The notes under the pieces are model-generated. The model did not search any database, was not told where the DNA came from, and saw nothing but the letters and a program-made list of their open reading frames with translations. From Laetmonice hystrix (Eukaryota), in the NCBI GenBank assembly GCA_965235115.1, contig OZ249436.1, forward strand, positions 1,118,001 through 1,182,000: a stretch of 64,000 bases of DNA, read 5' to 3'. Positions 1-20,803 of the stretch are shown here, in pieces (position 1 is the first letter of the stretch; the number at the start of each line of letters is the position of its first letter). The position numbers were made by a program, and so were the translations under genes.

Positions 1-29
1 CTGACACGGAAAGTATCCCGGCCCACAGT
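1..29 (-). CDS. Exon 26 (partial): start of second LDLa repeat DCGPGYFPCQ
   Basis: tgtag acceptor at 30-31; this copy differs from the upstream array copies; it may still be an array copy with the true exon outside the window. Confidence 0.55.
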
Positions 30-3000
30 CTACAACAATACAGAGATATTGGTATACATCTGGCCTTGTCCTCACACGGAAAGTATCCCGGCCCGCACTC
101 TACAACAATACAGAGATATTGGTATACATCTGGCCTTGTCCTCACACGGAAAGTATCCCGGCCCGCACTCTACAACAATACAGAGATATTAACAGTTACC
201 CCATGTTTGCTTACGTAGTACGGATTATAACCTAGCCTTGGTTGGCCATACCACATGAGGGCAAAACCCGAATGTGGTATGGCCAACCAAGGCTAGGTTA
301 TAATCCGTACTACGTAAAAGCAAACATGGGGCAACGATTTTATCACAGTTCCAGTCCTCACATTAGATTAGATGTAGTCATTAAATTCGGCAAAACGCCT
401 TTTGAAGTTTTGCAGTCATTTACACTGTGGCCACAGGCACAGGCATGTCTGCTATAATTGTGACGTCACAGTATCGGAGCTGCAGCCAAAACGGTAGGAT
501 AGAAAATTATCACAGTTCCAGCAACAATGCCGCTTTCTGATTGGTCCAGGCCCACGCGATATGAAGCCGTACTCGGTGACATCGCACCAAACGGGTAGGA
601 TGGGCCATCCTATAGTAGTAGTCGTCGCGCCATCTGCCGGTCAAACAGGTCATTTTTCTATCCTACCGTTTTGGCTGCAGCGCCCTGTGCCTCGTTTTCA
701 TGGTGGCGTAGATCTATGCAAACACAGCGCGATGGCAGCGAATGACTGCAAAACTTCCAAAAGTCGTTTTGCCGAATTCAATGACCACGTCTATAATGTG
801 AGGATTGGAACTGTGATAAAATCGTTGCCCCATGTTTGCTTTTACGAAGTACGGAGTATAACCTAGCCTTGGTTGGCCATACCACATTCGGGCTTCGCCC
901 TCATGTGGTATGGCCAACCAAGGCTAGGTTATATTCCGTACTACGTAAGCAAACATGGGGTAACTGTTAATGACCTGTTTGACCGGCAGATGGCGCGACG
1001 ACTACTACTATAGGATGGCCCATCCTACCCGTTTGGTGCGATGTTACCGAGTACGGCTTCATATCGCGTGGGCCTGGACCAATCAGAAAGCGGCATTGTT
1101 ACTGGAACTGTGATAATGGTATACATCTGGCCTTGTCCCCGCACGGAAAGTATCCCGGCCCGCACTCTACAACAATACAGAGATATTGGTATACATCTGG
1201 CCTTGTCCCCAAACGGAAAGTATCCCGGCCCGCACTCTACAACAACACAGAGATATTGGTATACATCTGGCCTTGTCCTCACACGGAAAGTATTCCGGCC
1301 CGCACTCTACAACAATACAGAGATATTGGTATACATCTGGCCTTGTCCTCACACGGAAAGTATCCCGGCCCGTACTCTTTAGCTGACGGATATATAATTA
1401 TATATAACGCTAACACCCGAATGTCACAGAATGAAGGGTGACAAGTCGGTGGTGACAGCTAGTGACACCTGGTGACAGGTAGTGACACCTACCGCAGGAT
1501 TTCTCGTCACTGCCGTCAAAACAATCGTTGGTGCCGTCACAGACGTGGTCGATCGACACGCACACTTTGTTCACACACTGGAATTCGTCCGAGCTACACG
1601 TTTCACGAACTCCTGTAAACAAAATGTCATCTTTTATCTCTCACTCAGGAAACCTAATTTAAAAGCACCTGGATTGTAATTTACACGAATAATTTAGGAA
1701 TTGAACCAGATTCCCCAGAGATCCCCAATTTCATGTAGAGAAGCTAAACAAACGGTACGCACTGGATTGGATAGTCTCACACATTACACTGTAGATATGG
1801 TTCCTATTGACGAGATGGCAGGGCTGGGAAATCACGCTGTAGTTTGCCACTTCATCCAGACGATGTTGTTTAGAGATCTGGAAGAAAGGTGTCTGGGATA
1901 AGTACAAACCGACTCCCGCCAATTAATACTTCATTCTGAACATTCAATAAGGAGTCTTTGAATGCGCTCCTCGTCACCTTTACAACTTTACTACAAAGCT
2001 GAATATTTAAATGACACATATTTAATCTTCGACGTCCTTTGCCCTCCCACTCTTTCATTCTAATTTACACAGACCCCCAGTAGATTATACTAACCCAGTA
2101 GATTATACTAACATGTATAATAGAGCAGCGGTCTGCCTCTCTGTCCAGCCAGATGTCTCCGTGTTCAAGGCGATGGTTCCAGATGTAGAGGAACTGTTTA
2201 ATCTTACTGAACGTTTCATTATCTAGCCGAGCTGGACGACCTTGGAGTCGGTGACATACTGACTTAGCGTCAGTCCACACCATGTTTTGTGCCGGGTTAT
2301 GGGTAGTGTTTGTTACACGGGTGTAATCGGTATAAAGTTGAAAACACCGTGTGCCAACCGTCAGCCAGCCACTGGGACAGGCTGTGTACAGAGAACACAT
2401 CCAAGTCGTCACGGGACACAAATATAACACGTGTAAAGTACAGCCACTGGGACAGGCTGTGTACAGAGAACACATCCAAGTCCTCACGGGACACAAATAT
2501 AACACGTGTAAAGTACAGCCACTGGGACAGGCTGTGTACAGAGAACACATCCAAGTCGTCACGGGACACAAATATAACACGTGTAAAGTACAGCCACTGG
2601 GACAGGCTGTGTACAGAGAACACATCCAAGTCGTCACGGGACACAAATATAACACGTGTAAAGTACAGCCACTGGGACAGGCTGTGTACAGAGAACACAT
2701 CCAAGTCGTCACGGGACACAAATATAACACGTGTAAAGTACAGCCACTGGGACAGGCTGTGTACAGAGAACACATCCAAGTCGTCACGGGACACAAATAT
2801 AACACGTGTAAAGTACAGCCACTGGGACAGGCTGTGTACAGAGAACACATCCAAGTCGTCACGGGACACAAATATAACACGTGTAAAGTACAGCCACTGG
2901 GACAGGCTGTGTACAGAGAACACATCCAAGTCGTCACGGGACACAAATATAACACGTGTAAAGTACAAGAGGACATTAATTTATTGATGACATGACATGA

Positions 3001-6000
3001 ATATTATACCGCTGTAATTATATCATCCCCTTAAAGGTGCTATTCGTCTCGCACAGAATGACATTTCTCCTATCATACATTGTGCACATAGTACTAGAAA
3101 AAATTCCTACCGATACCATTGGCCTGATAAACTTTCGATTAGTTTGTGTGCAGCATTTGGAACCTATCTCGGTGCGCACCGACATAGAGCCATTTCCTAT
3201 GGTGGGGCGTGTCAGGGTCTCCACAGGCCTTCTGAGAGAGCCCCATTTGTGCCGTTATCCATGAAAATTTTTGATTTCCTTTGGTTTGAATCTATTTCCA
3301 TGATAGGTGGGATCACATAAACGTCAACAAAATTAAAAATAAAAAAATTGAATTTTTTTCACGAATAGCACCTTTAAAGATTCATCCCAATCATCGCTGA
3401 CAACATACACATATTCATATCTTGTAATATCGTTAAGAATATCAAAGGAAGATTGAATCCGTTTCGGAGACGTACCTGAGTAGCCTTCCGATTCCATAAT
3501 TAGCAGAGATTCTGTCAGAGATTGTGTATCCATTGCTGTACTGTCTACAACAATCAAATGGTTGAGATAGGAGAGTTGTAATTTAATCACCACTCCAGTG
3601 CGCTTCTCTGTTTCATGTTTGATTGTCTTAATATAATAAAAATTGATATTGCAGTATGATGCGAGTTACAATGAATTTCATTTAGAAATTCAATTTAACT
3701 GGCCTTTATATATAAGTATAATGTAATAAATGAAGGGAAATAATAAGTACACTCGACACCAGAATGATATGAGTTGATAGGATATTATAATTGTTTATAA
3801 ATTAAAGCTCGTTTCCTTATCCCAGCCGATATGCCATCCTCAACTGACTCCAGTTCAACACCCTAGGCCTGATCCACTAAGGCGATTTTCCTTGCGACGG
3901 CCATGCGATTTTGACATCGCCCTTTTTTTACTGTAATTTTGAGATTAAATGATGGAACCCATTTCCTGAAACGGAGAAGGCCAGCCAGGGAACTCGCATG
4001 GCCGTCGCAAGGGGAATCGCCTTGGTGGATGAGGTCACATGTCCAGGGGTGTGTTTCAAGCGTGTCGGACCGTCCGACCGGCTACGGACAGTCCGTCGCT
4101 TGGTTGTAGGGCCTGCAATTTTTAGTCCGTCGCCGGTCGGACGGTCCGACGCGCTTATTGAAACCGCCCCCTACTCCAGTCCTTCAACTTTTCTCAGAAC
4201 CTGTGGCTTGAGTCCTTCTCTCTGACCAAATACTAGGGATCCATGGTCAACATTTTCTTTTTAAAAACATTTACTTTTCAAATATGTGTTTTATGGACAA
4301 GGTCATAACGGGATAACGTACTGCTAAGAGTTTTGGTGATGGCAGGTCGTTTACAGATTGCCGCTGAGCGCTGGAAGGGGTAGTCGCATGGGATCTTGGC
4401 CCAGTTGAGTGAGTTGTGTGGGGAGTTGGGCAGGGCCACTGTACACAGTGACCCTGAGTCGGCGGTGGGTTGGGCCGTCTTCACATGGAGCAAGTCGACA
4501 GTTCGGGGGTCTGTGTCCTCCACCACCGGCCCTGTCTCCATGGCCGGCCGCGGCCAATACCAGTCCGTGTAACTTTAACACAACACATCGCAAATTATTC
4601 CACATAATGAAAAGGGGGAAAAGGGAAAGAAAGACTTGAAGGATTAGTTTGGAGTTTGTGTCATTGGCATTAACCATCTTTATGTACCAAAGAGTTATGA
4701 GGATTCGATGCTTTTCCTTAATTCTGACAGAAATTTCTGTACTTCATGCATATGGGCCCCAAGGGGTGGTCCCTAGTGGCATAGTGATAATGCGAGATGA
4801 TTGGGCTGAAAATCTTCATGCATACACGATCAATGTATACAATAACTCCAACTTTAGTATTCATGCATCAGGAGCCTTTGAATAAAAAAAAAATTCGATT
4901 TGAATGAATCGAATCGATCGAGACATTTGGATCCGTGTCAGATGAATTATTCACTGCCCCAGTGGTGACTGCCACTGGTGAACACATCCTGAAGTTGTTT
5001 AACAATATTAAGGTCAACTTCAGCAATAACAGATTTTGCAGCAGCAACTCACGCCACACTTGTTCCATCGAGCCAAGAGTAGACCTCGCCACGGTTGTGA
5101 AGGCCAATAAACGTCAGCCGATGGTTGCTATGGTGTGTCCCAGACTTGTCCCAGAACCAGCCATTACCGAGCATGTACTGTGGTACAGGAACTGTTAGTT
5201 AGTATACAGTCTAAAGGGACTTACTGTGGTACAGGAACTGTTAGTTAGTATACAGTCTAAAGGGACTTACTGTGGTACAGGAACTGTTAGTTAGTATACA
5301 GTCTAAAGGGACTTACTGTGGTACAGGAACTCTTAGTTAGTATACAGTCTAAAGGGACTTACTGTGGTACAGGAACTGTTGGTTAGTATACCGTCTAAAG
5401 GGACTTACTGTGGTACAGGAACTGTTGGTTAGTATACAGTCTAAAGGGACTTACTGTGGTACAGGAACTGTTGGTTAGTATACAGTCTAAAGGGGCTTAC
5501 TGTGGTACAGGAACTGTTGGTTAGTGTACAGTCTAAAGGGGCTTGCGCCAGGATGGGGGGGGGGGGGTTGCCGGGGGGTGTTAGTGTTGGGGTTGAACCT
5601 TCCAAGCAGAAAAAAGAAAAAAATGCTTCATAAGGGAGAGGAGGTTGCAACTCCAGTAACCTCCTCTGGATGCGCCAATGGTCTATACAGGGCACGTATG
5701 GTAATGGCCCTAAAACCCTTAAGGGAATGTGCATCCAGATAAGAACTACTACATAATCCTACATAGGATACTTAGAATATACCTTGATGAAATAGGCTTC
5801 ATCTTCGTCTTTGATGGTCAACAAAGTACCGTTTTCCTTGGCACATTGGTCTGCCGACTGCTGCCAAGTCTCGGTGTAGTCATACTTGCCAAGGTTAGTT
5901 TTATAATGTCGGAGGGACCATGGAATATGCCTGTAGCAATGGCCCCGGTAATACTGATAGACCGGCTCAGCCACTGGGCACTGATCCATGTCACCTGCAT

Positions 6001-9000
6001 TGTTGAGGAACCCAGAGAACATCAGGAGAAAAACTATTAGATTACTGAGAAACGTGCAATGTTCTGACGGGATTCGCTCTGGGGTTTTAAGGAAAACATC
6101 AAGGGCACGGTGACAATTACGGTAGCAACAGATGGTGTACTAAATACTGCGTGGTAACAGATGGTGTACTAAATACTGCGTGGTTAGCACCATTATGATT
6201 CTTCTTTCAGGAAAGTCTGTATTGGGGTTCGTTCGTCGGTACCTGCCATAGTAGATAATGGAGCACACAAATTGCAGATTTCAGGTTGCGAACGATGCAC
6301 AAATGGTAAGAAAAGCCGTGGGATATGTTAGGAGTATAAGCACGGACGCAAACACAGGGTAAGAAAGTTCTATAAAGCGGTTAAAAACATGACCGTGTTT
6401 CCGAACTGCTTATTTTATATACATTGTGCCCCGCCGAGCTAGACTAGTCTCGATCACATACTCTTCATATATTGAGGAACCTCCATCTTCTGTGACGTGT
6501 AGGCAAGTTTGAACTCCCACCGCTGGCTGAACGTACTCTCTAGGGTGTTAAGTTCGATCCCTAGCTTCTGGTAGGGCGGTAGCTGGAAGACAGATCCCAA
6601 TGCTATCAGTGTGCAATCACACGCCCCAGAGACCTCCTTACCGCGTACAACTCCCTCCATGATCGATACTACGGGCGTTATTACCTATGTTTGTACGGTT
6701 ATTGTATTATGGTATTCTTTATGATGTATGTCTGATACACTTCTAATCCATTTACGACGCATTACTACATTTTAAATTTCCAAGCACAATGGAACGTGTT
6801 CTACCTTGATGGCTAGTGTTGGCAGGAAGAGATCCGTGTCAGCGCACAGGGTCAGTACATCAGTCTCGTAATGTTTCAAAGTCCCCGAATCCTTGGGAAC
6901 TTCTTTTACTGTAGAAAGACTCACGTATATGACATCGTGACCCAGGAATCAATAACAAAGCAGTAATTTGAGTCATTTGTTCGCTGAGAAGGCAAGGTCA
7001 AGCAATAGAGTTACTAAAATGTGACCAATCTTTAAATCTGACACTTCACAGGTCTCCCCCTTGCTGACCACGCAGTAAAGTAATATGACGAATCAGCAAC
7101 CTTTGCAGAACAAATGCTCATCTTTCTTAAGATTACAGAAAGGCCAACTTAGACAAAATTACATTATTGACATTGCATGAACTCTTATTTAGACAAACAA
7201 ACACAACAAAACTATTTATGAAAACACAATTCTGACGTCAAAGGCAACTCTTGATAGATAATATGAAAATTTGTGTATCACCAAGCCCTGAGCCAACTTA
7301 TAAATAATCAAAACCATTGCCTAATTATACATTTAGCATTATTTCAAAAGTAACTTACTTCGACTTTTGCTCTATCAGAGGCAGGAATCTGTTACTGACA
7401 ACTTATTATTATAGATCACACTTTCAACTTTACTTTAAGTAATTTCTAGCACTCATTCCCGAGAAGGAGAAACAACCAAACAAAAAACAAATTAGAAATA
7501 GATCAATACCTGACACTTATCACCGTTTTCATACACCTCTTACAGTAACCCTGACTAAACCAATATTTACCAACCCACGCCACCTTCGTAATTATAGTGA
7601 CAACTGTGTGTGACGTACTTTTGAAGTATTCAGAGCACCCCGTGTGTGCCGGGCCCCTGACATAGTACAGATTGACGGTGAAGAAGGACCCTTGGTTGGC
7701 GTCTGGACCTTCGATAACCCACGTCCACAGACCGACGCCCACCTCAGCCGGGAAGAATGGCGACAGGATGACACCACACGAGGACAACAGTGTCTTCGTC
7801 TTCACCTCTCCCAGCTGGTCAAAACGGCAACTGTCATTCTCTGAAACAGGTACACCACACACTCAACTCGGGCCTTCACCTCTCCCAGCTGGTCAAAACG
7901 ACAACTGTCATTCTCTGAAACAGGTACACCACACGCTCAACTCAGGCCTTCACCTCTCCCAGCTGGTCAAAACGGCAACTGTCATTCTCTGAAACAGGTC
8001 CACCACACGCTCAACTAGGACCTGCACCTCTCCCAGCTGGTCAAAACGGCAACTGTCATTCTCTGAAACAGGTACACCACACGCTCAACTCAGGCCTTCA
8101 CCTCTCCCAGCTGGTCAAAATGGCAACTGTCATTCTCTGAAACAGGTACACCACACGCTCAACTCAGGCCTTCACCTCTCCCAGCTGGTCAAAACGGCAA
8201 CTGCCATTCTCTGAAACAGGTACACCACACGCTCAACTCAGGCCTTCACCTCTCCCAGCTGGTCAAAACGACAACTGTCATTCTCTGAAACAGGTACACC
8301 ACACGCTCAACTCAGGCCTTCACCTCTCTCAGCTGGTCAAAACGGCAACTGTCATTCTCTGAAACAGGTCCACCACACGCTCAACTAGGACCTGCACCTC
8401 TCCCAGCTGGTCAAAACGGCAACTGCCATTCTCTGTCGCTCAACTCGGACCTTCACCTCCGTTACTGACGTCTACTTTGTAACCAAGTTTTGTAGAGGTG
8501 GGAGTTTTGTCCCCTCCAGGGGTTCAGTCTGGTATACAAGTGTCACTTGGATGGGGGGGGGGGGTGTACATGCAGAAAGCTTACCGTTGACGGTGACGAT
8601 GGCCCGTACGATCCCCCCGACCCGGGTATGTTGTGTGGTGTCCGAGTAGAAAACTACAAGGAATTCTCCCGAGTCTGACGTCACCGTCTGCTGCCGAACC
8701 GACGGCGAGGATCCGCAGAACGGTCCTAACAAAACAAAGGAAGTCAACATAACTAAACAAGGTTTCTGATTAAAAAATATAACTTAACTCGTTAACATTT
8801 CTAGCACGTTTAACCCTTGATGTGTTTCTGAACAGGAAACTATGAACTAAACCCGGCAGAAACATGTCACACCAATTATTTCTTAGTGCAAAGTAAAACG
8901 TAAGTCATTAAATCAAAACCTACATCATTACATACCAAACATGGGGTCGTCGGTCGAATTACCAGCATGGATGACAAGACCGTCGGAGCTGCAGGTTGGG

Positions 9001-12000
9001 TCTTGAGGGTAAACAACGAAGTCGAGGAAGTTCATCACTAACTGGCTTCCCACCTCCCCACGTATCAACCACTTACAGTACAGTCCTGCAGCAAGAAACG
9101 TGATTCAACTGAAGGGCCTATAAAATACCTCAATGGATTCAAACAGACATGTATATTGCTGGAAAGACCCCTACACGTGCCCTGAACATGCACAGAAGTA
9201 TCTCGGTCAAACCAAGTGTAGCCACTGCTGTTACCTGCGTCATACATAGGTTGATCCTGATTGGTCCGTTGGCCGGACACCATGACGACGACTGGCTCGA
9301 GCCGCGTCACAACGTTGTTTTCTGTACCGTCATATGACGTCATGTCGTAAAAGGCCGGGCGGTAGCAGCCTGAACGTTCTGGGGTCCATTCTGATAATGG
9401 AAACATGAACAATCGAGATAAGAATTAAGTTAAAGGGAATAGAAAAGTTCAAACTATCAATATAAGGGTGTTCAGCATGAACAAGCTTGTTCTTACCTAC
9501 AATTCTGTGATTATCTAAACTTTAATAAAGGAAAAATCAACCGAAATGTAGAGACATTCTCCGGCTGGCTTCGTCGGTTTGTTTACCCTATTTGGCCCTT
9601 ATCTCAATCTATTAATAGATATAGCTCCCGCTGTCTCGCATGGGAAATAGCGAATGACCCGGGCGGTATTTTTAAAAAATCGCCGTAGACAGTGTTCCAC
9701 TTGTCGGTGTGACCTTAGACACTTTATATGGTGTTACTGGTGTTCACAGGTACGTTAGTGAGGAACATTTACTGTAGGTTTATTGTTAAGCAGTTCTATA
9801 AAATAACTATGTCAAATGAAATTTTCTATTACCTTCATTAAGTCTTTATGATGACACTCTTCTAATATTTCTTCCATGCTAAATAACAAACGCCGTTACT
9901 ATTTGAACGGTTTGAACATGGACAACTTTGCTGCCGTCAATGGAGTGTTAAATTGATCGCAAAGTTGACAGCCAACAAAGTCGATTCTCGCTGCAATGCC
10001 AAGTCACGGAGAACGTGCTCACCTGACGCAGTGAACGCGGTGCTGAAGTTATATTTCCCACCATCCTTTGATCGTGTGGCGACAATGAACACTTGAAACC
10101 CGGTAGACAGGATATGTCCTGTCAGATTTAACTTCCGCCCAAGTGTGTGCACTCCCTCACTGACAATAATATCTGATGTTGGCGACGAACCATCGTATAT
10201 CTGCATGTCAATTGTAGTGTTAGTAGTGTTTTTATGGTTACACAGTGCTTTCCGTTATCAAATATAAACTATCTTGAAATCAACCCATTTAATAACGCCC
10301 TCTGTGGTTACCTTTAATCCGCCACTTACCTGTTCTATTCCCGAAGTGGCCGAAAATTGTCTAAGTTCGAAAAGGTACTACATTGATTGGTCGGGAGTAG
10401 CAATCGATAACAGAACAACCCTATCAAAACCAGGTCGTGTATCTGTCACATTTTGAATAGGACATGCTGAGCTGTTGCGTCAGTATTTCAGTCGGTCCTA
10501 TGGCTGTTCCATCCATTGCTTGCGGATAGGAGGACTGGTGGTCGAGTCTATTGCTCTCCGGTTCATTCAGTATACTAGAGATTTCTGGACTTTGAAATTT
10601 TATGAGCTAGGGAATAGGATAGGTAAGTGGGTGGGGGTGGGGGGGGGGGGGAATATATAACGACTTTTTAAAAAATCTATCATTGGCCTGCTCGAGTACC
10701 TGGACGGCGGCGTTGTTAGTGGCACTGAAACTCCACTGCAGGGAGACTCTGTGTCCAACCGGAACTCTAACAATCCACTGCTGGGAGACTGCCTCACGTG
10801 TCTCCACAACATCCGGGGACTCAGCAGACGATATAAAACCACTGGCGCCCTCTACTTCCTGTACGGGGGCGCGCTTTATCCAATCGGCTGATGCTGTAAT
10901 AAGTACAATCTGACTGCATATCACAGGCATACGTAACATTAGGTCACATATTTCAACACTGTGTTGTCCATTAAATAAAAGAGGGAACTTCCTTTTCGCG
11001 TGAAAATACAAAATGCAGATCACAGATCACCTACCGACTGACTTATATAAGAGCGATATTGAATGGTTCCCGGTCTGCCACGTGACGTTTTCCAGTCCGA
11101 TCAGAATGGTGTTAGTTTCCAGTTGTATTGACCACGGGAACTGCAGCCCGCAGTATTTCCTGATCGATGTTGGAGGAGAATATCGCCCGTCATACACCAC
11201 CAGGCCGCCATTCTCACACCCCATACCTGAAAGGATACACTCTGTTTCTTAACCAAATTTATTCTATGGATTATTTTATACCTTTCGCATAGATCTTAGA
11301 GACTTCAATAAACTAATGCCACGTTGTGGTTATCCGCTCAGCGTACACTTTCCTTGCGCATAGAAACTGTGCCGACTAGAATAAAAGAAAAAGTCACTCG
11401 TAGGTATGCTAACCTGTATCTTCAATTTGGAAATCGGCAAAGGTCAGGTTGATGGAGTGACCTTGCTGGACTGTGATTGACCAGGAACAATCTGTCAATC
11501 TCGGAGTGTCCTGGATTGATATTCGTCCACAGTTCGAGGTGAACGTCTTGGCTGTCCCGCACCCAGAGTCTCCACTTCCTGTCCCACATTCTGTCCAAAT
11601 ATAACCTCTCTAAATTTTAAACGGTTATTCCAAATGAGATATCCACAATAACCTTCATCCAAACAGATAAATATAATTATAAATCGGATCGAGTATGACG
11701 TCATTGCTACTGAACAGACAGCTGAACTGAACAGGAACAAAGGCAGTCAACATAACTAAATATAGGTTTCCGATTAAAACAGAACTCCTTTTTAACTTTT
11801 TAATGGGGCGTTAAATTTATTTCCAGTTTCCTTTACTCAACTTTTACACCTGGCAATACTTCAACGTGAAGCAATGCTATGTCTATATATGTCATGGGGT
11901 CATTTATACCATCTTCCTTGAAGGCGATCATGAAGCCGTCTCCTGTGACCGAGCTGTCGGATGACATCTCCAGTGTGACCTCATTAGTACGGGTGTAGAT

Positions 12001-15000
12001 AATCTGTCTGTAATCAGCCAGAGATCAAGATAAGGAATGATCATATAATAGCATATCAATATCAGCGAAAATAATGTAGACTCCAATCCGGTAGAGGTGT
12101 AACAGTCCTCTTACAAACAACTCAGAGCCATATCTATTGGACCCAGCTATGCACCACAAAGTGTCGTTTCTTGTCCCAGCTCGCGGCAGCGGAAGTTTTT
12201 AAAAAGAACCCAACTGGTTCATATTAGACTGGGTGAGACCTTTTCACGTTCTTTAAAGACCGACATGGTGTGCCACCCGGCAAATGGTAATGTGGTACCA
12301 GGCGCCCGCGCCCAGCCAATCTGAAGGCGGTGGGCGTGCTAACGGCGTGATCTTTTACCAGGCCAGGTCCAATCAATGGGCCAGAAAAAGCCAGTCACGG
12401 ATGATTGACAGGCGAATACAATAGAGCAGGGGTCATCGCACCGCGATTTTCAAATCCAAGCGCCAGGCAAGAGTAGAAATTGGTATTGATTTTCGATGAT
12501 TTCTAATGTTCATCGACACTGACACTGTAGGTATATTAGGATGCCCTCTGACGATTATGCAGTTTGGGCACGTGAATGCGATGGATATCGCCCGTTATTG
12601 CCAACCATGGGAGCTCTTCACTCGGCGATGTCTGGGAGTCAAATGAGCTGGTGGGCGTCACCCTTCCCTTTTATAGTGCATGTCGGTCTTTAATAGAAAC
12701 ATTAAACATCATATCCTTATTTTTTTCATCCAGATTTCTTAGACTTTTTCTTTTTTGCAAGGAAGGACATGAAACGAAACACTTGTTTCGGCCTTAGATT
12801 GACTTATCATGTACCCTATGACACACATAGGTTCTTTCGAAATAGTGTCAACAGCGGCGTTGACGGATTGGTTGTAAGATGTAGAGTAGGTCCTACTCAC
12901 TCACAGAACCTAACATATCTAATGAATAATTCATCTGAAATACCGTTATCATGCATCATTGGCTCTCTGCATCCAATAATGCATCTTAATCTATTGAAAG
13001 TTAACCCCCAGTTCCATGGTTAGTAAGTGTATGTAATAAATACTAGAATTCACTGTTACTTTATAGTAAGAGGAATGAACATATTTTGTTACAGTAAGAG
13101 TGAACATATTTTGTTACAGTAGGAGTAAACAGAATTTGTTACAGTAAGAGGAGTGAACAGATTTCGTTACGCTAACAGGAGTGAACAGAATTTGTTACAG
13201 TAAGAGGAGTGAACAGATTTCGTTACGCTAACAGGAGTGAACAGATTTCTTTACAGTAAGAGGAGTGAACAGATTTCGTTACAATAACAGGAGTGAACAG
13301 AATTTGTTACAGTAAGAGGAGTGAACAGATTTCGTTACAATAACAGGAGTGAACAGAATTTGTTACAGAAGAAGGAGTGAACAGATTTGGTTACAGTAAC
13401 AGAAGTGAACAGAATTTGTTTACGGTAAGAGGAAAGATCAAATTTTGATAATGCTGTCTCACGTGATTTCAGTTGATGTCTGGTTGGCAGTTCCACACAT
13501 CGGCCCCAGCAGTATTGGCGATGTCACATTGGGGCCCTCATATATCACAAGCGAATCGTAGATACAACCCTTCCCTCCTTCAAGATCTAACGCCTTCAAG
13601 CTGGAGTCAAAACAGGCATTTGTCAGCTAAGATAAGAAAACCATTGGCACGGTTCACACACCCCCGGGGGTGGGTAGGCACCATAGCCACAGCCAGGTAT
13701 GGCCATAATGGGACATGCTTGGAATTTGTACATGATGCAACAAAGATATATCCTCCAGAGGAGAGCTCGAGATGTACATGACTATGAACTCACTCTAGAG
13801 ATATGGTTCTGCCTTCCCTGACTTTGACCTTCCACTGACATCTGACATTGGGAGGGTAAGGCAGGGGCCAGAGTGGTGACGTCACAATCCCTCTGGTACC
13901 GCTTAGTGACGTCACCCCACACTCTGTCCACGTTTGACCTGGCAGAACTAAAAATAGCAACAGACAATAAGGCACCTCTACTCCAACTTAAAGGGAATAG
14001 AAAAAATCCTCACTAACGTACCTTTGAACACCAGTAACACTAAGGTCTAAGGTCACACCGATAAGTGGAACACTGTCAACGGCGACTTTTTAAAAATACC
14101 GCCGGGTCATTCGCTATTTCCCACGCGAGACAGCGGGAGCTATATCTATTAATAGATTGAGATAAGGGCCAAATAGGGTAAACAACCGGACGAAGCCAGC
14201 GGGAGAATGTCTCTACATTTCGGTTGATTATTCCTTTATTAAAGATCAGATAATCACAGAATTGTAGGTAAGAACAAGCTTGTTCATGCTGAACACCCTT
14301 ATATTGATAGTTTGAACTTTTCTATTCCCTTTAACCATGACGATTACGGCATCATAATGCCATTCCGCATATAATGCCAAGTTATAAACACAACAAGATT
14401 ACCTATATTGCATGTTAGTGTAATATATGCCTATACTTGTGGAATTTGATTGTTTTAAATGGAATCATCATTTCATACCAGGTGTATTGTAGGGGAGCAG
14501 TTTACTGTTAGATATACGTACGTTTAGTTTCACACTTTGAGCCATAAAAGTTTGGTTTACACTGGCAGACAAATTCTTTGTCCCCTGACACGTATTGGCA
14601 AGTAGCGTTGTTTTCACACGGATTTGGGAAACACGCTACCGTTCCTGGAAAAGTAGGATGCAATCTAAGCACAGACAACAGAAATAGATACGAAATAGAT
14701 ACGAAATGCAAACCTTTTCGTAAATGACAGTAGCGTACTCAATGCCGGTATGATATGAAGCAGTGGTAACAAAGGCTAATAGAAATGGCCAAATTGGCCA
14801 ACTCGATGAGACAATGCCAGAGCTAATAAACTGACACGAGCTGCACTGTAACTTGATAATGGCGATATGTTACGAGATTTCTACGGGGGAGTTCTCCGGA
14901 AGCCTGGTCGGGCCATTGCTAGGAGTGAAATACGGGGGTTGATGTCAACGCAGCAATATTTTATGTGGAGGCTGATAGAAATTATCTGGTGGTCGCCAAA

Positions 15001-18000
15001 TACAACATAGTTTCACTCCGACATGAGATATTCCCATTCAATTAATGACACAAACGGGCTTCGGTAGGTTTCCGTTACGCCGTCGTTAATAACGATCATC
15101 GTTAAACAAACTTAAACCACCTGGTTATCATCATTAATATTCATCCTTGAATGGCCTTGAATGCGGTGCTCAAATAGGCCCTGTTGTTATAGAAAGGGTG
15201 TATAATACTCATAGACGTTTCTGTCATAATACTCTTGTCGTTAAAGTACTATAGTGTTGGATTACCCCCGCTAGCCCCCCGCCCGCTAGCCCCCCGTTTA
15301 GACAAGGCCGAAGGTGTGAGAAATCTGTGCCGGTAGCCCCCCGCCCGGCTGTTCCACTCCCTGACACTACCCCCACCACTGAGGCGTGGACGGAGTTGGG
15401 GGGGGGGGGGGGGTCAACGGCAGACTTGGCGATTCATATACTGCCGATGCAGGCAGGTCAGCCAGCCCCCAAAAGAAAGAAAAAGTATTGACTCCCGATA
15501 TGTATTGACTCCCGATTGCACCAGTTAGGCTTAGACTATGATATGCCACAGAATGCTGGAGTCCTATATGAAGGCGGTTGGCCATATGATGGACAATACT
15601 ACTGGTACTAAGTAAGGCAGTGGCTGAGTGTATAACTGTGATTCTAACTAACACCATAATACAGATTCAGTCCCGTAACACCCGTAATCAGTCATTGATA
15701 TATCTAGTAACACCCCCTTATTATTTGTCGCTTGCCTTTTAGTTATCCCTTAACAAAGAACTATACATTACAATGCAAGTTCTTTGCCCTTACCATCCCT
15801 CACCGCTGACCACCCCAAATCTCATCAGGGGGTAGTGTCTGATAGTGGAACAGCCGAGCAGGGGGCTAGCGGCACAGATTTCTCACACCTTCGGCCCTGT
15901 CTAAACGGGGGGCTAGCGGGCGGGGGGCTAGCGGGATGATACCCTATAGATACGTCCCAATATACGCTCCATGTGGGAGGGCAGATTCAGTCCGAACAAG
16001 CCAGTCACATACAACTCATACAACGACGGAATTGATAACGGCCTGAATTCATTGATTACTGCCAGGGTCTATATAAAACTACAGCTTACCACAGCAGCAC
16101 TACAACATTTACCTTGATTACGGCTTGTTATTTATATTATTTCTTAGCAATCAGATTGCAAGAATGATGATGTATAGCCTTTTCCGTCAATGCCCATGGT
16201 TAATGTATGGTATCGAACGACATTCAAGCTAAAGTCCCCTTTGAAATCCTGTATTTCAATTGTAATTGACTACTTCAGCTTAACTCAATGATGCCAACTC
16301 TTCATATTCAATACATGACTTTTTTTGCAATTGTAATTGTAAAGTCATTGTAATGAAAGAGTCCATTGCTGCTGACAAAGAGTGGCGCTAGACTCTATAC
16401 TACGATAGCTTTCAGGGACAAATGGCAAGGACGTTTGATGTATGAAAGGGGAATAAAAAATATATAATAAATAATAAATAATAATAAAAAATAAGTAAAT
16501 TCGATCGAATGAAACAGGGAGTTATCTGCATTCCTCTCCTTTCCGCGGCACTCTGATGTCTCGTAATAACCACTATCAAAATGTCTTTAAAAGAAACTCA
16601 TAAACCATTGAGTGTCTTTTTGAGACAAACCATCATGCCTGTCTGTGATGTCCGACATGAGGCAATTGAATGGGAATACCAACACATACAGTTTTCAGTA
16701 TTAGAACAAGCACCCAATAGAAACCTCCCTTTTACAGAAAGCGAGTGTGAAAGCGAACATGTAAATCCTATGCACAGTTAATTTGTTCTCTGATGTTGAT
16801 AAAAAGAGAATGGTTACTTGCGTTCACATATAAAACCTTGGATGTCTTTAGCATTCGTATCACAACTATGATCAGCCCAATAAAAGGACGATAGTGAGAG
16901 TTTGGGCAATGCCCAGAACTTGTAGTTGGTGAGAATAGTACAGTCCTGGCCGTTGGTGGCGCTGCCGTCGGGTTGGCCCTCGTACCAAGACGAGGCCGGG
17001 TCGTTGGGCAGTGGCATGCGCGTTCCATCGGCCCACATCCAGCGTCCCTCTAATGTAAGAGTAAAGACCATAAAGTGAATAAATTGTTAGAAAATAGCAT
17101 GGTTTTCAAAACTAATAAGCTTATGATATTTTAAGCAGTTTGCACAGCGGGCTGTTTATTCCCATAGGACTACATGCAATTTGATTTCAACCCTTTTATT
17201 TATTAGGTGGAATATAAAGACATTTCTAATGGCAGCTCAGGTTAGGACGCACAGATTTTTTTTAGCCAATAATATGCAAGGAACAATAACTTGACCTTGA
17301 GCAGCGTCTGAGCCTCCAATGAACGCGCTCATGACGCGCATGCGCAGAATGCTCCGTGCCAGGAACGCGCCCTCCTCCTCAGTGTTGACGCTTACAAGCA
17401 TTGCGCCTTCCGTCCGGCAGGCGGCCATGGCCCTCGAGGCCGTCATTGTATTATCCTCAAAGAATTTATAAGAATGGTTTCCAAAATCCTGCCACTCATC
17501 CGGGATTAGTGCTTCAGCTGGACAAGAAAAGTATAGTTAAATAGCTAGCTGCAGGTCACAAATGGCAGTCCTATTTGATCCTTGGGTCGTTCATATCCTA
17601 GAGTTCTTTCTATTAAATCATGTTTTGACATTATATCGGATATATTTAACTTTCTAATATTGCTCCCTCACGTCGCCTTACATAAACATGATTATTCGAG
17701 TATCGCGACTGTGCAGATACAGATACAGGACTGCAATGTCTACCCATGGTTCTGTACTTACGATTGCAAACTTTGTAATAGTCAAAACAGCAATTTTCAA
17801 ATTGGATGCAAGCTTCGTTGCAGTAGCAAGGTTTTCCTGGAAAATAGGCCTCATCGCATCGGTTGGCACACGAGGCTTCGTTCTCTTCCCGCAAAACTGT
17901 TTGAAGTCAATAAAAAGACCGTGAAATCATTTTACTAAATGATAAGTTACCATGCTGTGTTATAGGGCACGAGTGGGATCTTCAGCACTGAGTGGATATA

Positions 18001-20803
18001 AATGACACCACAACGTCTTTGATCATAACAATCCCGGGCATCTTTCATCTTTCATAGCTGAGGCACAGAACCAGCCTCCACGAAAATTCTTTCATAGCTG
18101 AGGCACAGAACCAGCCTCCAGGAAAAGTCTTTCATAGCTGAGGCACAGAACCAGCCTCCAGGAAAAGTCTTTCATAGCTGAGGCACAGAACCAACCTCCA
18201 GGAAAAGTCTTTCATAGCTGAGGCACAGAACCAGCCTCCACGAAAAGTCTTTCATAGCTGAGGCACAGAACCAGCCTCCACTAAAAGTCTTTCATAGCTG
18301 AGGCACAGAACCAGCCTCCACGAAAAGTCTTTCATAGCTGAGGCACAGAACCAGCCTCCAGGAAAAGTCTTTCATAGCTGAGGCACAGAACCAGCCTCCA
18401 CGAAAAGTCTACTAACACGTCGAGAAAGGAGGGCGAAGTTCAAGGCGTTTTTAATGCGTTCTCTCATACATTTGCCACCGACTGAACCTATGTTGGATCC
18501 AGGGCCCGGTTTGTTTTGTTTACTTTTCCACCGTGAGCAAGGGTGAGCAGAGCTGAGCAAGGGTGAGCATGAGCTCATGCTCACCGTTTTGCTCACCGTT
18601 TTGGGGGTTTCCCCGTGACCTTGGGGTTTCCCCGTGACCTTGCTCACCATGAGCACGCCTCACGGATAAAAAACAAAACAAAACCACGAAAACGGTGACC
18701 AAAAAACGGAGTAGTTGCACTAGAACATACGTTCCATATAGACTAATGCGCTATCAACGAAGGTAGCCGTTTTTTATTCAGGTTTAAAAGCCTCAGAGTG
18801 AAAGCCTCGCGATCGTGAAGTAGTGAGTATACATTTGTAGTTTGTGATCACAAAGCAGAGATGGCACACTCGAAGGCCATGCGGCTGAAGCCTTGCTCAA
18901 ATATCAGAAACGCATATGGATTTACAATCTAATGTCTGACGCGACTCTTTGTGCCGAGTTTTCGCCAGTAAACTGAGTAATTCATTGGGCACACCGGTCG
19001 AACCTGGGGCAGGACTGATTCTATTCAACTGAGTATGGGATGAATGCCGAATCAAGGGTTTGCGTCCATAATGTCATACGGTAGTTCTATATACATTTCG
19101 AGGATCGTATATTTGTCTTCCCATCTCCGGGAAAATGTTGTTGTTGCTTGATCTATAAACCCAGCGATGTATTGTCAGCCTCGCCTGAATCGTTCTGAAT
19201 CAGTTGTCAGTGCGATATGTGTGTTCCATCAGAAGCGAGTGTCACATATTTTGGTGCCTAGATTATATTCTTGATGTAAATAACAGAGGAGACTGAACTT
19301 CTCGGAGAACCCCCAAATTTATGTGTAATCTAATATCCAATGAGATGTCTATATTTTCGAGTGTCCGAGCCACTTCCGGGCTGCGGACTTGTGTTGGTCA
19401 CGTGACTATCTTGGGAGCCTTTACCATCAAGTCGCCGACATGGTAATATAGTGTGCAGGTGTCAAATATATAGTGAGGCAGAATGATCCCATATATACAT
19501 GCTCTAGATAACGTTGATATCTTCAGCTATTATTCAGAACACAAGCTCCCCAGTATATTATAAAGGGCGTCTCAGAAAAAAAAACGAAATCCTAAAATAT
19601 CACCATTTTGTGAGAAAATGATACTAACTAGATATACGTTACCAAATGTTTCTGATAGGTCAAAACCTCCTCCTTCCAATGATGTGTCAATTTCCTCAAT
19701 CGATTCAGAGATGACCGAATTATTATTGTTTTCCTCCCACAATCCGAATGCAGCCTGGGACAAAGTTAATACGTCCGAAAATCCGTGCATCTGACAGCAT
19801 GAGATGCAATTGAAACAAACGGTGAAGAGGAAATCCGAACTCAATTTTATTCCTCGTTAATTTGTCTCCATCATCCATGTCAAACTTGTCAAATGAAGTA
19901 TAAAATTGATTATCTAACATTGATTTCGTCATCCCCGTTTGTTCCAATTGCATCTCATGCACTGATTTTCGTAGGCCTACCTCTGCAGCCTGCAGAGGTA
20001 GACCTACCTCTGCAGCCTGGGAAGGCAGCATAGGTAGACCTACCTCTGCAGCCTGGGAAGGCAGCAGAGGTAGGTCTACCTCTGCAGCCTGTGGAGGCAG
20101 CAGAGGTAGACCTACCTCTGCAGCCTGGAATGGCAGCAAAGGTAGACCTACCTCTGCAGCCTGTGGAGGCAGCAGAGGTAGACCTACCTCTGCAGCCTGG
20201 AATGGCAGCAAAGGTAGACCTACCTCTGCAGCCTGGGAAGGCAGCAGGTGTAGACCTACCTCTGCAGCCTGGGAAGGCAGCATAGGTAGACCTACCTCTG
20301 CAGCCTGGGAAGGCAGCAGAGGTAGACCTACCTCTGCAGCCTGGGGAGGCAGCAGAGGTAGACCTACCTCTGCAGCCTGGGAAGGCAGCATTCGGGTTGT
20401 GAAAGCTCGATATGAAGATTGGTATGGAGAGCGCATTTTGTTGTGGAACCATTCTGTGAAATTTGACCATAACATTTCTTTGATATACTTCTTGCAATCA
20501 GTCCATGTGCAGGTCATTCTATGACATTTCCTGATGTTACCATCTTTTGGTCGTTGAGAAAGGATCTATGGGAGCTCACGCTGGGAATGAGGGGTGGAGG
20601 GTATTACCAGCACCCTCGGCCACGTGATCAGATTTACAAGGAATCATTCTTGCTATAATTAATGCATTCACACACCCATAATATATACATGAACTCATAT
20701 TTGAGAAATGTTATATTGATCCCAACGTAAGGCGGAACTTACCTTCTTCTTGAGAATAGACTGCAGGGAGAAGTAACAGGAGAACGAAGCGACGGCACCA
20801 CAT
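1..20803 (-). CDS. Multi-exon gene (3'-truncated by window) for a large mosaic secreted/membrane protein: SP-SMB-CTLD-EGF-CUBx~5-CTLD-CTLD-like-LDLa-LDLa...; possibly GRL101/LGR-like receptor ectodomain
   Basis: 26 exons joined with matching intron phases into one ~1330-aa open frame; Cys patterns of SMB, CTLD, EGF, CUB and LDLa recognisable. Receptor class is inference because the C-terminus is outside the window. Confidence 0.9.
190..1116. mobile_element. Non-autonomous fold-back element with interleaved inverted repeats (possibly Crypton/tyrosine-recombinase-type)
   Basis: Interrupts one 70-bp unit with 0-1 bp duplication; two ~135-bp hairpins; three inverted-repeat pairs; family call is inference. 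Confidence 0.8.
1493..1612 (-). CDS. Exon 25: LDL-receptor class A repeat
   Basis: [35 protein letters not shown] (canonical LDLa); phase 1-1. Confidence 0.95.
1763..1877 (-). CDS. Exon 24: CTLD3-like part b
   Basis: ...QPCHL...YSVMCE; ttcttccag acceptor, GTGCGT donor, phase 0-1. Confidence 0.8.
2113..2381 (-). CDS. Exon 23: CTLD3-like part a
   Basis: CPSGWLTVGTRCFQL...WTDAKSVC...; acacag acceptor (amplified in the 75-bp array), GTTAGT donor. Confidence 0.88.
2366..2967. repeat. 75-bp x 8 tandem array spanning exon-23 acceptor
   Basis: Near-identical units starting 2366, 2441, ... 2891. Confidence 0.97.
3035..3373. mobile_element. MITE with TTAA TSD (Kolobok-like)
   Basis: ttaa|aggtgctattcgt ... 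acgaatagcacct|ttaa. Confidence 0.8.
3476..3544 (-). CDS. Exon 22: short linker
   Basis: 69-nt open phase 1-1 exon between ttgtag and CAG|GTACGT; no domain signature. Confidence 0.6.
3865..4036. mobile_element. MITE (PIF/Harbinger-like), same family as 56059-56269
   Basis: TIR ccactaaggcgattttccttgcgacggccatgcga / tcgcatggccgtcgcaaggggaatcgccttggtgg; interior shared with the 56-kb copy. Confidence 0.8.
4045..4172. mobile_element. Small palindromic MITE
   Basis: aggggtgtgtttcaagcgtgtcggaccgtccgaccgg ... ccggtcggacggtccgacgcgcttattgaaaccgccccct. Confidence 0.65.
4322..4572 (-). CDS. Exon 21: CTLD2 part c
   Basis: YTDW...QP...LCTV...NWAKIPCDYP...AICK; phase 2-1, GTACGT donor. Confidence 0.88.
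5053..5177 (-). CDS. Exon 20: CTLD2 part b
   Basis: YMLGNGWFW...TFIGLHNRGEVYSWLDGTSV; ccacag acceptor (amplified in the 46-bp array), GTGAGT donor (phase 2). Confidence 0.87.
5176..5543. repeat. 46-bp x 8 tandem array containing branch point plus acceptor of exon 20
   Basis: Minus-strand unit agtccctttagactgtaTACTAAC(t/c)aacagttcctgtaccacAG|ta. Confidence 0.97.
5783..5994 (-). CDS. Exon 19: C-type lectin-like domain 2 part a
   Basis: CP...YRGHCY...TWQQSADQCAKENGTLLTIKDEDEAYFIK; phase 1-0. Confidence 0.9.
6462..6582 (-). CDS. Exon 18: CUB5-like part c
   Basis: LPPYQKLGIELNTLESTFSQRWEFKLAYTS; tcttccag acceptor, GTATGT donor; an upstream in-frame acceptor at ~6684 is also possible. Confidence 0.72.
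6805..6908 (-). CDS. Exon 17: CUB5-like part b
   Basis: IKEVPKDSG...LTLCADTDLFLPTLAIK; ctttctacag acceptor, GTAGAA donor, phase 1-0. Confidence 0.75.
7619..7840 (-). CDS. Exon 16: CUB5-like part a
   Basis: SSCGVILSPFFP...WTWVIEGP...FTVNLYYVRGP...CSEYF; tttcag acceptor (amplified in the 74-bp array), GTACGT donor. Confidence 0.85.
7800..8459. repeat. 74-bp x ~9 tandem array spanning exon-16 acceptor
   Basis: Units at 7800, 7874, 7948, ... 8392 (last unit internally deleted). Confidence 0.97.
8585..8725 (-). CDS. Exon 15: CUB4 end
   Basis: GPFCGS...VTSDSGEFLVVFYSD; ttgttag acceptor, GTAAGC donor. Confidence 0.88.
8936..9085 (-). CDS. Exon 14: CUB4 middle
   Basis: LYCKWLIRGEVGSQLVMNFLDFVVYPQDPTCSSDGLVIHAG; ctgcag acceptor, GTATGT donor. 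Confidence 0.88.
9235..9390 (-). CDS. Exon 13: linker / CUB4 start
   Basis: Open frame EWTPERSGCYRP...QPMYDA between tatcag acceptor and GTAACA donor, phase 1-1. Confidence 0.75.
9434..9834 (+). mobile_element. Kolobok-like MITE, copy 1
   Basis: ttaa|agggaatagaaaa... with degenerate right end ttttctattacct; inverted paralog at 13992-14330. Confidence 0.8.
10023..10200 (-). CDS. Exon 12: divergent CUB3 part b
   Basis: IYDGSSPTS...ILSTGFQVFIV...NFSTAFT; phase 0-1, GTGAGC donor. Confidence 0.85.
10700..10893 (-). CDS. Exon 11: divergent CUB3 part a
   Basis: VEGASGFISS...QQWIVRVPVGHRVSLQW; phase 1-0. Confidence 0.85.
11035..11226 (-). CDS. Exon 10: CUB2 part b
   Basis: GCENGGLVVYDG...KYCG...; tttcag acceptor, GTAGGT donor. 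Confidence 0.88.
11414..11605 (-). CDS. Exon 9: CUB2 part a
   Basis: YIWTECG...CGTAKTFTSNCGRISI...DCSWSITVQQGHSINLTFADFQIE; acceptor ambiguous within tttagagag. Confidence 0.8.
11910..12007 (-). CDS. Exon 8: CUB1 part c
   Basis: IIYTRTNEVTLEMSSDSSVTGDGFMIAF (CUB C-terminal motif); donor position somewhat uncertain. Confidence 0.8.
13068..13432. repeat. Intronic minisatellite (alternating ~27-30-bp ttgttacagtaagaggagtgaacaga-type units)
   Basis: Visible degenerate tandem units. Confidence 0.85.
13463..13600 (-). CDS. Exon 7: CUB1 part b
   Basis: LKALDLEGGKGCIYDSLVIYEGPNVTSPILLGPMCG; phase 2-2; not in the ORF track, read manually. Confidence 0.9.
13794..13947 (-). CDS. Exon 6: CUB1 part a
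   Basis: CGVTSLSGTRGIVTSPLWPLPYPPNVRCQWKVKV; tttttag acceptor, GTGAGT donor (phase 2). Confidence 0.9.
13992..14330 (-). mobile_element. Kolobok-like MITE, copy 2
   Basis: TTAA TSD on both sides, 13-bp TIR agggaatagaaaa/ttttctattccct. Confidence 0.88.
14522..14644 (-). CDS. Exon 5: EGF-like domain
   Basis: CFPNPCENNATCQYVSGDKEFVCQCKPNFYGSKCE; ttttccag acceptor, GTACGT donor, phase 1-1. Confidence 0.92.
15250..15949. mobile_element. MITE/fold-back with ~120-bp TIRs
   Basis: 15250-15374 is inverted-complementary to 15828-15949 (ccgctagccccccgcccgctagc.../...gctagcgggcggggggctagcgg). Confidence 0.75.
16822..17049 (-). CDS. Exon 4: C-type lectin domain 1, C-half (QPD motif)
   Basis: EGRWMWADG...WYEGQPD...QDC...WADHSC...FICE; probable GC donor (C|GCAAGT). 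Confidence 0.88.
17296..17517 (-). CDS. Exon 3: C-type lectin domain 1, N-half
   Basis: PDEWQDFGNHSYKFF...AMAACRTEGAMLVSVNTEEEGAFL...AFIGGSD; ttgtccag acceptor, GTCAAG donor. Confidence 0.9.
17762..17896 (-). CDS. Exon 2: somatomedin B domain
   Basis: SCANRCDEAYFPGKPCYCNEACIQFENCCFDYYKVC (8-Cys SMB pattern); acag acceptor, GTAAGT donor, phase 1-1. Confidence 0.92.
18048..18410. repeat. 40-bp x 9 minisatellite
   Basis: tctttcatagctgaggcacagaaccagcctcca(c/g)gaaaag. Confidence 0.95.
19975..20390. repeat. 36-bp x ~11 minisatellite in intron 1
   Basis: aggtagacctacctctgcagcctgggaaggcagcag. Confidence 0.95.
20743..20803 (-). CDS. Exon 1: start codon and signal peptide MWCRRFVLLLLLPAVYSQEE
   Basis: ATG at 20803, basic n-region, hydrophobic core, VYS-Q cleavage-like site, G|GTAAGT donor (phase 1). 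Confidence 0.85.

Follow-up and report, generated by a model that had tools for sequence, protein, structure and literature searches.

Minisatellite arrays that duplicate 3' splice sites in a GRL101-like receptor gene and in dynein genes of Laetmonice hystrix

We analysed a 64,000-nucleotide stretch of DNA from Laetmonice hystrix (GenBank assembly GCA_965235115.1, contig OZ249436.1, positions 1,118,001 to 1,182,000; hereafter the window). The contig is 73.8 Mb long, with the window 1.1 Mb from its start, and the genome has 627 Mb. Four tandem arrays in a minus-strand receptor gene of the window (the host gene) each multiply a true 3' splice site (acceptor) and place copies of it, which we call decoys, ahead of the working site. 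The structure of these arrays is that of the known 'mirage' minisatellites of amphioxus, and the part added here is an excess at acceptors: counts in dynein heavy-chain genes, a small sample and not a genome-wide measure, give evidence that arrays are about 2.5-3-fold over-represented at acceptors. We favour, with some reserve, the reading that the arrays are mirage minisatellites arising as by-products of a genome-wide process of local tandem amplification, for which no regulatory role is needed. Four arrays alone would be a curiosity of a structure already known. A measurable acceptor excess, if true, would turn a lancelet anecdote into a rule on where repeats arise or survive in genes.

The host gene and its acceptor arrays

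The host gene was modelled by hand as 28 exons running from window position 20803 to -2636 (negative positions lie to the left of the window), with a stop-free reading frame of 1466 codons. Its 27 introns comprise 26 of the GT-AG type and one of the GC-AG type; the GC donor, that of exon 4 (window 16822), is kept in both the host gene and its paralog and is required for the reading frame. The encoded domains are a signal peptide, SMB, C-type lectin, EGF-like, CUB repeats and LDLa, and the exons for the leucine-rich repeats (LRR) and the seven-transmembrane region (7TM) lie left of the window. Single-exon family matches to SMB, C-type lectin, CUB and LDLa were obtained for 7 of the 11 exons tested; a homolog search using exon 23 gave no match. 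For the LRR-7TM exon, the closest named relatives are proteins of the annelids Lamellibrachia (P0270, 57%) and Paralvinella (P0271, 55%), the next rows reaching at most 45%. Identity to these two proteins is 55-57% over the LRR-7TM exon and 32-45% over the N-terminal part. Because these GRL101-like receptors of annelids have the same LDLa-LRR-7TM architecture, the host gene was named accordingly and probably encodes a GRL101-like G-protein-coupled receptor (GPCR) of annelid type. Exon boundaries were inferred from homology with a spliced aligner made for this analysis. Driven by P0270 alone, the aligner recovered 18 acceptors of the model, including those at 7840, 5177, 2381, -737 and -2520, and with P0271 it recovered four of these five. 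The exon numbers 16, 20, 23 and 26, under which a reading of the sequence alone had listed the four arrays, are also those of the 28-exon model.

1..20803, minus strand: part of the GRL101-like GPCR gene inside the window, exons 1-25 and intron 25
7800..8435, minus strand: 74-bp array of 8.6 copies at the exon 16 acceptor; 7 full decoys (8358 to 7914) and a truncated first copy; real acceptor 7840
7619..7840, minus strand: exon 16, 222 nt, phase 1 (gene model)
5176..5544, minus strand: 46-bp array of 8.0 copies at the exon 20 acceptor; 7 decoys; real acceptor 5177; absent from the paralog
5053..5177, minus strand: exon 20, 125 nt, phase 0, second half of the C-type lectin domain; its start agrees with the annelid relatives residue for residue
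2366..2967, minus strand: 75-bp array of 8.0 copies at the exon 23 acceptor; 7 decoys; real acceptor 2381
2113..2381, minus strand: exon 23, 269 nt, phase 1, C-type-lectin-like (gene model)
1493..1612, minus strand: exon 25, LDLa domain (PF00057, E 3e-13)
1112..1378, minus strand: 5' block of the 70-bp array at the exon 26 (LDLa) acceptor, 3.8 copies; decoys 1306, 1236 and 1166
191..1117, no strand assigned: interspersed-repeat insertion of 927 bp, which splits the 70-bp array; absent from the paralog
4..190 in the window by repeat detection and onward to -801, minus strand: 3' block of the 70-bp array, 14.2 copies; decoys 169, 99 and 29
-737..-847, minus strand, outside the window (acceptor at contig position C1:1117263): the real exon 26 (gene model and P0270 alignment)

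The arrays were detected by Tandem Repeats Finder (TRF) and consist of 8-18 head-to-tail copies with 94-99% matches. The gene model, the paralog and the annelid alignment agree that the units of 74, 46, 75 and 70 bp each copy the true 3' splice site and flanking bases, as the sequence-only reading had proposed. The shares of intron and exon bases per unit are 33+41 (74 bp), 44+2 (46 bp), 59+16 (75 bp) and 5+65 (70 bp), so that the flanks on one side may be as short as the 2 exon bases of the 46-bp unit or the 5 intron bases of the 70-bp unit. The same reading had counted about 6-8 decoys in each array, which is correct for the 74-, 46- and 75-bp arrays (7 each) but not for the 70-bp array, which has 16. 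It had also let the 70-bp array end with its acceptor inside the window, which proved wrong: the array reaches -801, and the AG at position 29, tried as the true exon 26 acceptor, was rejected as a decoy, the real acceptor lying 737 bp beyond the window. The pyrimidine tract of the working exon 26 acceptor is the exon-derived sequence of the preceding 70-bp copy. The 74- and 70-bp arrays each have a degenerate first copy. In the 46-bp array a TAA stands in frame directly after each of the 7 decoys, while the unit junction also reads GTAAGT, the donor consensus. A fifth acceptor array (73-74 bp, 15.8 copies, 14 decoys) precedes exon 28 outside the window.

An inverted paralog (C1:1070672-1098000) lies about 12 kb from the 3' end of the host gene and has the same exon layout, with 1439 stop-free codons. 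Intron positions and phases are equal in 25 of its 27 introns, introns 17 and 24 being poorly placed, and no new intron position was found between the two paralogs. Identity is patchy, 72-100% from exon to exon, and in many cases stops no more than about 15 bases from an exon edge, a pattern such as gene conversion may leave. The copy numbers in the paralog and the host gene are 7.6 versus 8.6 for the 74-bp array, 12.9 versus 8.0 for the 75-bp array, 19.0 versus 18.0 for the 70-bp array and 11.8 versus 15.8 for the 73-bp array. Since these numbers differ beside exons that are 98-100% identical, array copy number changes fast. The paralog lacks both the 46-bp array and the 927-bp insertion; it has one acceptor for exon 20, at the corresponding position. 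Searches with the units, which give lower bounds, matched the 46-bp unit only at this locus and the 74-bp unit only in this gene and the paralog; the 75- and 70-bp units are likewise private to the pair. Of the features that define a mirage minisatellite, the head-to-tail array of minisatellite size, the boundary-spanning unit and the origin at its own locus are present, and length instability is seen solely through the comparison of the paralogs. The 927-bp insertion consists of about two 465-bp units with internal inverted repeats, and dozens of copies of this unit, 97-100% identical and some in tandem pairs, occur genome-wide.

In amphioxus, mirage minisatellites have been described in Adh3, troponin C, the globins BflGb6 and BflGb9, and PGBD5 (PMC3087553, PMC3902484), the second account adding the PGBD5 and troponin C cases. 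There, as here, the unit spans an exon-intron boundary, the splice site is duplicated, copy number varies and either exon end may be copied, with units of 10-160 bp compared with 19-165 bp in this study. Those hosts are cephalochordate, whereas the host here is probably an annelid, and a single gene carries five such arrays. Normal splicing was reported in amphioxus from reverse-transcription PCR (PMC3087553), whereas use of the terminal acceptor is predicted here from sequence. The portions of the two amphioxus accounts available to us hold no count corresponding to the acceptor excess over a placement null measured here. Intron gain from mirage arrays has already been proposed for amphioxus, and the Rogers model of intron gain by tandem duplication, in which repeat units would form a new intron and one array copy would be recruited as an exon, is cited in the same account (PMC3087553). 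An amphioxus host was considered and dropped. The nearest named relatives of the host gene were annelid, not amphioxus; a dynein tree, built with no amphioxus row, put the query outside the vertebrate clade without resolving its position further, and 44 innexin-family matches were found at many loci. A GFP search gave no match, and its control was silent as well. Intronic repeats are known from earthworm genes, splice-site-spanning units not being among those described in the available part of that account (PMC12783039). A literature search of partial coverage found no genome-wide acceptor-versus-donor array count and no annelid mirage.

Array counts in dynein heavy-chain introns

An independent count was made in dynein heavy-chain genes (about 140 kb, as three large regions and twelve fragments). 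We kept 185 introns predicted by the spliced aligner and counted arrays with a unit of at least 15 bp and at least 2 copies. Before counting, 14 introns of the small loci that were doubtful or lay at an edge were removed, as was every intron where two profiles disagreed. This excluded one clear acceptor array (67 bp, L035) and several ambiguous arrays of contig C18, of which two may be donor arrays and one an acceptor array. A fragment separated from a donor array was entered as internal. The strict acceptor class required overlap with the acceptor; the lenient class added units matching the acceptor of their own intron at 14 of 18 bases, for which the chance rate is 0.2%. In the null, one unit was placed at random in the collapsed introns, either pooled or within its own intron. 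With a median collapsed length of 190 bp, 13-17% overlap is expected per intron end.

Among the 38 arrays found, 11 (strict) or 15 (lenient) lie on acceptors, 6 on donors and 17 inside introns, where 4.9 (pooled) or 6.3 (own intron) are expected per end. The acceptor excess is significant under the pooled and own-intron nulls both strictly (P = 0.006 and 0.03) and leniently (P = 3e-5 and 3e-4), and donor arrays are at expectation. When six arrays seen before the choice of two of the regions were removed, 13 of 32 remained on acceptors against 4.8 expected (P = 2e-4), and in a region chosen blind it was 4 of 8 against 1.0 (P = 0.007). These figures come from a small sample in which arrays within one gene are not independent. 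The sequence-only reading had suggested intersecting TRF arrays with acceptors, donors and random intron placements; carried out on the dynein sample, this bears out in part its proposal that local amplification is biased towards, or retained at, 3' splice sites. Fifteen of 38 arrays against 4.9-6.3 speak for it, but the excess of acceptors over donors is not significant (P = 0.078 lenient, 0.33 strict). Its neutral counterpart, a genome-wide minisatellite process that is merely tolerated, is also upheld, with 39% of the window in tandem arrays, most of them away from any modelled gene, and 17 of the 38 dynein arrays internal to introns. The two readings are not exclusive.

The structure seen in the host gene recurs in unrelated single-copy dynein genes on three other contigs, with up to 35 decoys before a conserved exon. 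The share of DNA in arrays is 39% in the window and 49% at the C18 end, compared with 14-17% in two internal regions. Two dynein loci stand out:

19076-21667 of a 40-kb stretch in the C10 region: dynein heavy-chain gene with a 72-bp acceptor array of 36 copies, 35 decoys; collapsed intron about 158 bp
Last 260 kb of contig C18: dynein gene, 49% of its DNA in arrays; the 24 confidently placed introns hold 9 acceptor and 4 donor arrays

In the host gene, which served as the discovery set, 5 of 14 TRF rows are acceptor arrays against 1.1 expected. That all multi-copy arrays overlap an acceptor, as had been claimed, holds within 1-8.5 kb, where it is four of four because of the cut; three further multi-copy arrays of the gene lie off the modelled splice sites and lower the proportion to 4 of 7 over the part of the gene in the window. 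These counter-examples, and a donor-side copy that had gone unlisted, are:

13061..13447, minus strand: 28-bp array of 14 copies, intron 7; starts 15 bases past the donor and covers no splice site
18048..18410, minus strand: 40-bp array of 9 copies, intron 1; off the modelled splice sites
19992..20390, minus strand: 36-bp array of 11 copies, intron 1; unit resembles an acceptor, 9 nt and a donor
2076..2112, minus strand: 18-bp duplication of 2 copies starting exactly at the exon 23 donor; common to the paralog

Two of these were considered as mirages, the 36-bp array of a micro-exon and the 40-bp array of an acceptor. Neither is supported: in the paralog the SMB exon follows exon 1 directly, and the relatives offer no support for the micro-exon either.

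Choice of the last acceptor and origin of the arrays

All 202 decoys of 20 acceptor arrays were scored with a weight matrix built from 192 array-free acceptors. Decoy and terminal scores are equal in 12 arrays, the terminal site being higher in 6 and lower in 2, so a weak first copy or a stronger last copy is not supported as a general means of silencing decoys. Since the decoys score like the terminal site, sequence cannot pick the site. Use of 180 of the 202 decoys would give a frameshift or a stop, the remaining 22 being open, and 16 of the 20 arrays, dynein exons included, have no open decoy at all. In the host gene each of the 30 decoys of the 74-, 46- and 70-bp arrays would give a frameshift or a stop. 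Some decoy copies carry frame-breaking deletions of 1-2 bases (68-bp units, a 73-bp unit). Unit length is divisible by 3 in 5 of the 20 arrays, about the chance level, so that the frame preservation of a regulated alternative 3' splice site is not seen. Most decoys would give a frameshift or a stop, so if these genes work the choice must depend on position and fall on the acceptor closest to the downstream donor; splicing thus probably uses the last copy and skips the decoys. In exon definition the downstream donor is paired with the nearest acceptor, which predicts use of the last acceptor and, in donor arrays, of the first copy. A search of sequencing runs listed three holders of one sample (72-78% of words), with no RNA run among those listed.

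A comparable situation is known from intron 7 of human F7, where the first unit of a 37-bp variable-number tandem repeat spans the splice junction and the identical pseudo-sites are silent (PMC1557585). In both cases position, not sequence, picks the site. The human repeat is on the donor side and its first transcribed site wins, whereas in the arrays described here the last of 8-17 equal acceptors must win, contrary to what first-come scanning would give. Arrays of identical acceptors in such conserved genes would separate position from sequence in 3' splice-site choice, and if only the last copy is used they would provide a clean case of exon definition in an invertebrate with short introns. 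If a genome-wide bias is true, natural tests would be offered by hundreds to thousands of genes, each with the last among as many as 35 identical acceptors being chosen. In these genomes, arrays of this sort will also be a source of error for gene prediction and for the assembly of short reads.

If the arrays are by-products of local amplification, a stretch of 20-165 bp would have been duplicated in place, with the extra copies of the boundary falling in the intron; that the coding sequence stays intact while the last acceptor is used can be read directly from the sequence. Copy number, whose drift is seen between the paralogs, would change by unequal exchange or slippage, and the copies would be homogenised. 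The spliceosome would take the nearest acceptor upstream of the donor, so that the last copy wins, and stray use of decoys, mostly giving a frameshift or stop, would be removed. We tentatively attribute the acceptor excess itself to retention: selection would pin the terminal copy, with its exon and its branch and pyrimidine tract, and an array so pinned could not be deleted whole and would keep being re-seeded. The median copy numbers of 13.4 for acceptor, 11.1 for donor and 3.5 for internal arrays are higher at the boundaries, which fits retention by a pinned terminal copy. We also put forward, tentatively and leaning somewhat against it, the broader proposition that minisatellites across the genome are born or kept at 3' splice sites several-fold above the rest of introns, and more often than at donors, owing to some link of splice-site architecture with the duplication or loss of DNA. 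The papers found describe no such link.

Several observations weigh against this account. Strict overlap covers only 11 of the 38 dynein arrays, with P = 0.03 on the own-intron null, and one gene contributes 19 of the 38, leaving without it 6 of 19 against 2.5-2.9 (P = 0.03-0.04). The paralog's own arrays of at least 3 copies (21, 22, 33, 94 and 71 bp) include none, 0 of 5, on a modelled acceptor. The difference in copy number between boundary and internal arrays, which bears on the retention step, has P = 0.11, and in the 75-bp array none of the 7 decoys would shift the frame or bring in a stop.

Arrays might instead be tolerated throughout but arise preferentially at 3' splice sites, by a DNA-level process at exon edges such as conversion or recombination tracts that end with homology, or breaks at polymerase-pause or nucleosome-free sites before exons. 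The excess at acceptors with donors at the expected level would fit such a process, as would array cover that is highest near contig ends and paralog identity that often ends near exon edges, the tract of exon 23 running from inside the 75-bp array to the 18-bp donor duplication. Tracts ending at exon edges are, however, expected anyway after intron divergence, and the short direct repeats on the flanks that usually seed slippage occur less often across acceptors (2.6 six-base repeats per 10,000 spans) than across donors (3.5) or intron interiors (5.8), so that slippage seeded by microhomology was rejected as the cause of the excess. We regard a bias at birth as rather unlikely. Plain chance, with arrays placed uniformly and overlap with acceptors following from unit and intron length, is helped by the 13-17% overlap per end that short collapsed introns give and by the fall from four of four to 4 of 7 in the window. 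It appears improbable, since the counts of the independent set exceed both nulls, and do so even with the richest gene left out and within the region chosen blind; chance junction matches amount to only 0.2% under the lenient rule.

A functional role as a copy-number splicing switch looks unlikely. In such a switch, use of decoys would add protein modules, or would adjust output because transcripts with a stop are degraded. In its favour, decoys match the real site in strength, and each unit of the 75-bp array, all 7 decoys of which keep the frame without a stop, would add 25 residues before a lectin-like domain; the copy number of this array differs between the paralogs. A few in-frame arrays of this kind could, if so used, give copy-number-dependent receptor isoforms. 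The lack of any open decoy in 16 of 20 arrays and the mere 5 of 20 units divisible by 3 argue against the switch, as do the annelid relatives, which have no such insert at these junctions, and the arrays in dynein motor exons, where inserts would presumably be harmful. We therefore hold the switch to be very improbable. That the arrays are single copies mis-expanded in assembly is barely credible, given that copies differ by substitutions and indels in higher-order variant patterns that recur, that one array holds a mobile insertion and that these arrays recur in the paralog with different variants and copy numbers.

Other repeats in and around the gene

Several smaller features of the host gene were noted. 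At about 4440-4550 of stretch L011, a degenerate two-copy duplication of about 59 bp repeats another acceptor of the same gene with the start of its exon; the copy is followed by a GT of its own, and the duplication was missed by the array count. A degenerate 10/20-bp repeat just past the exon 25 donor (window 1450-1491) has units resembling that donor, and a 29-bp array of 43 copies (C1:1107102-1108400, L011/L012) starts at what may be the donor of an exon that is possibly the last one of the host gene. Intron 1 contains an open stretch that resembles an exon and has good splice signals (window 19642-19755); its phase does not fit exon 1, and the paralog lacks it.

In an intron of the paralog, a 94-bp array of 3 copies (C1:1086519-1086798, L014) has a unit resembling the end of a foreign lectin-type exon with a GTAAGT donor. 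Elsewhere on the contig, C1:1040000-1063000 contains a block of about 8.5-9 kb in three tandem repeats, judged from a recurring set of small arrays. Within the window, positions 25600-64000, where no gene was modelled, hold more than 20 unrelated minisatellites with units of 20-180 bp and up to 88 copies, and one 42-bp array lies within a larger duplicated block at about 30200-32750.

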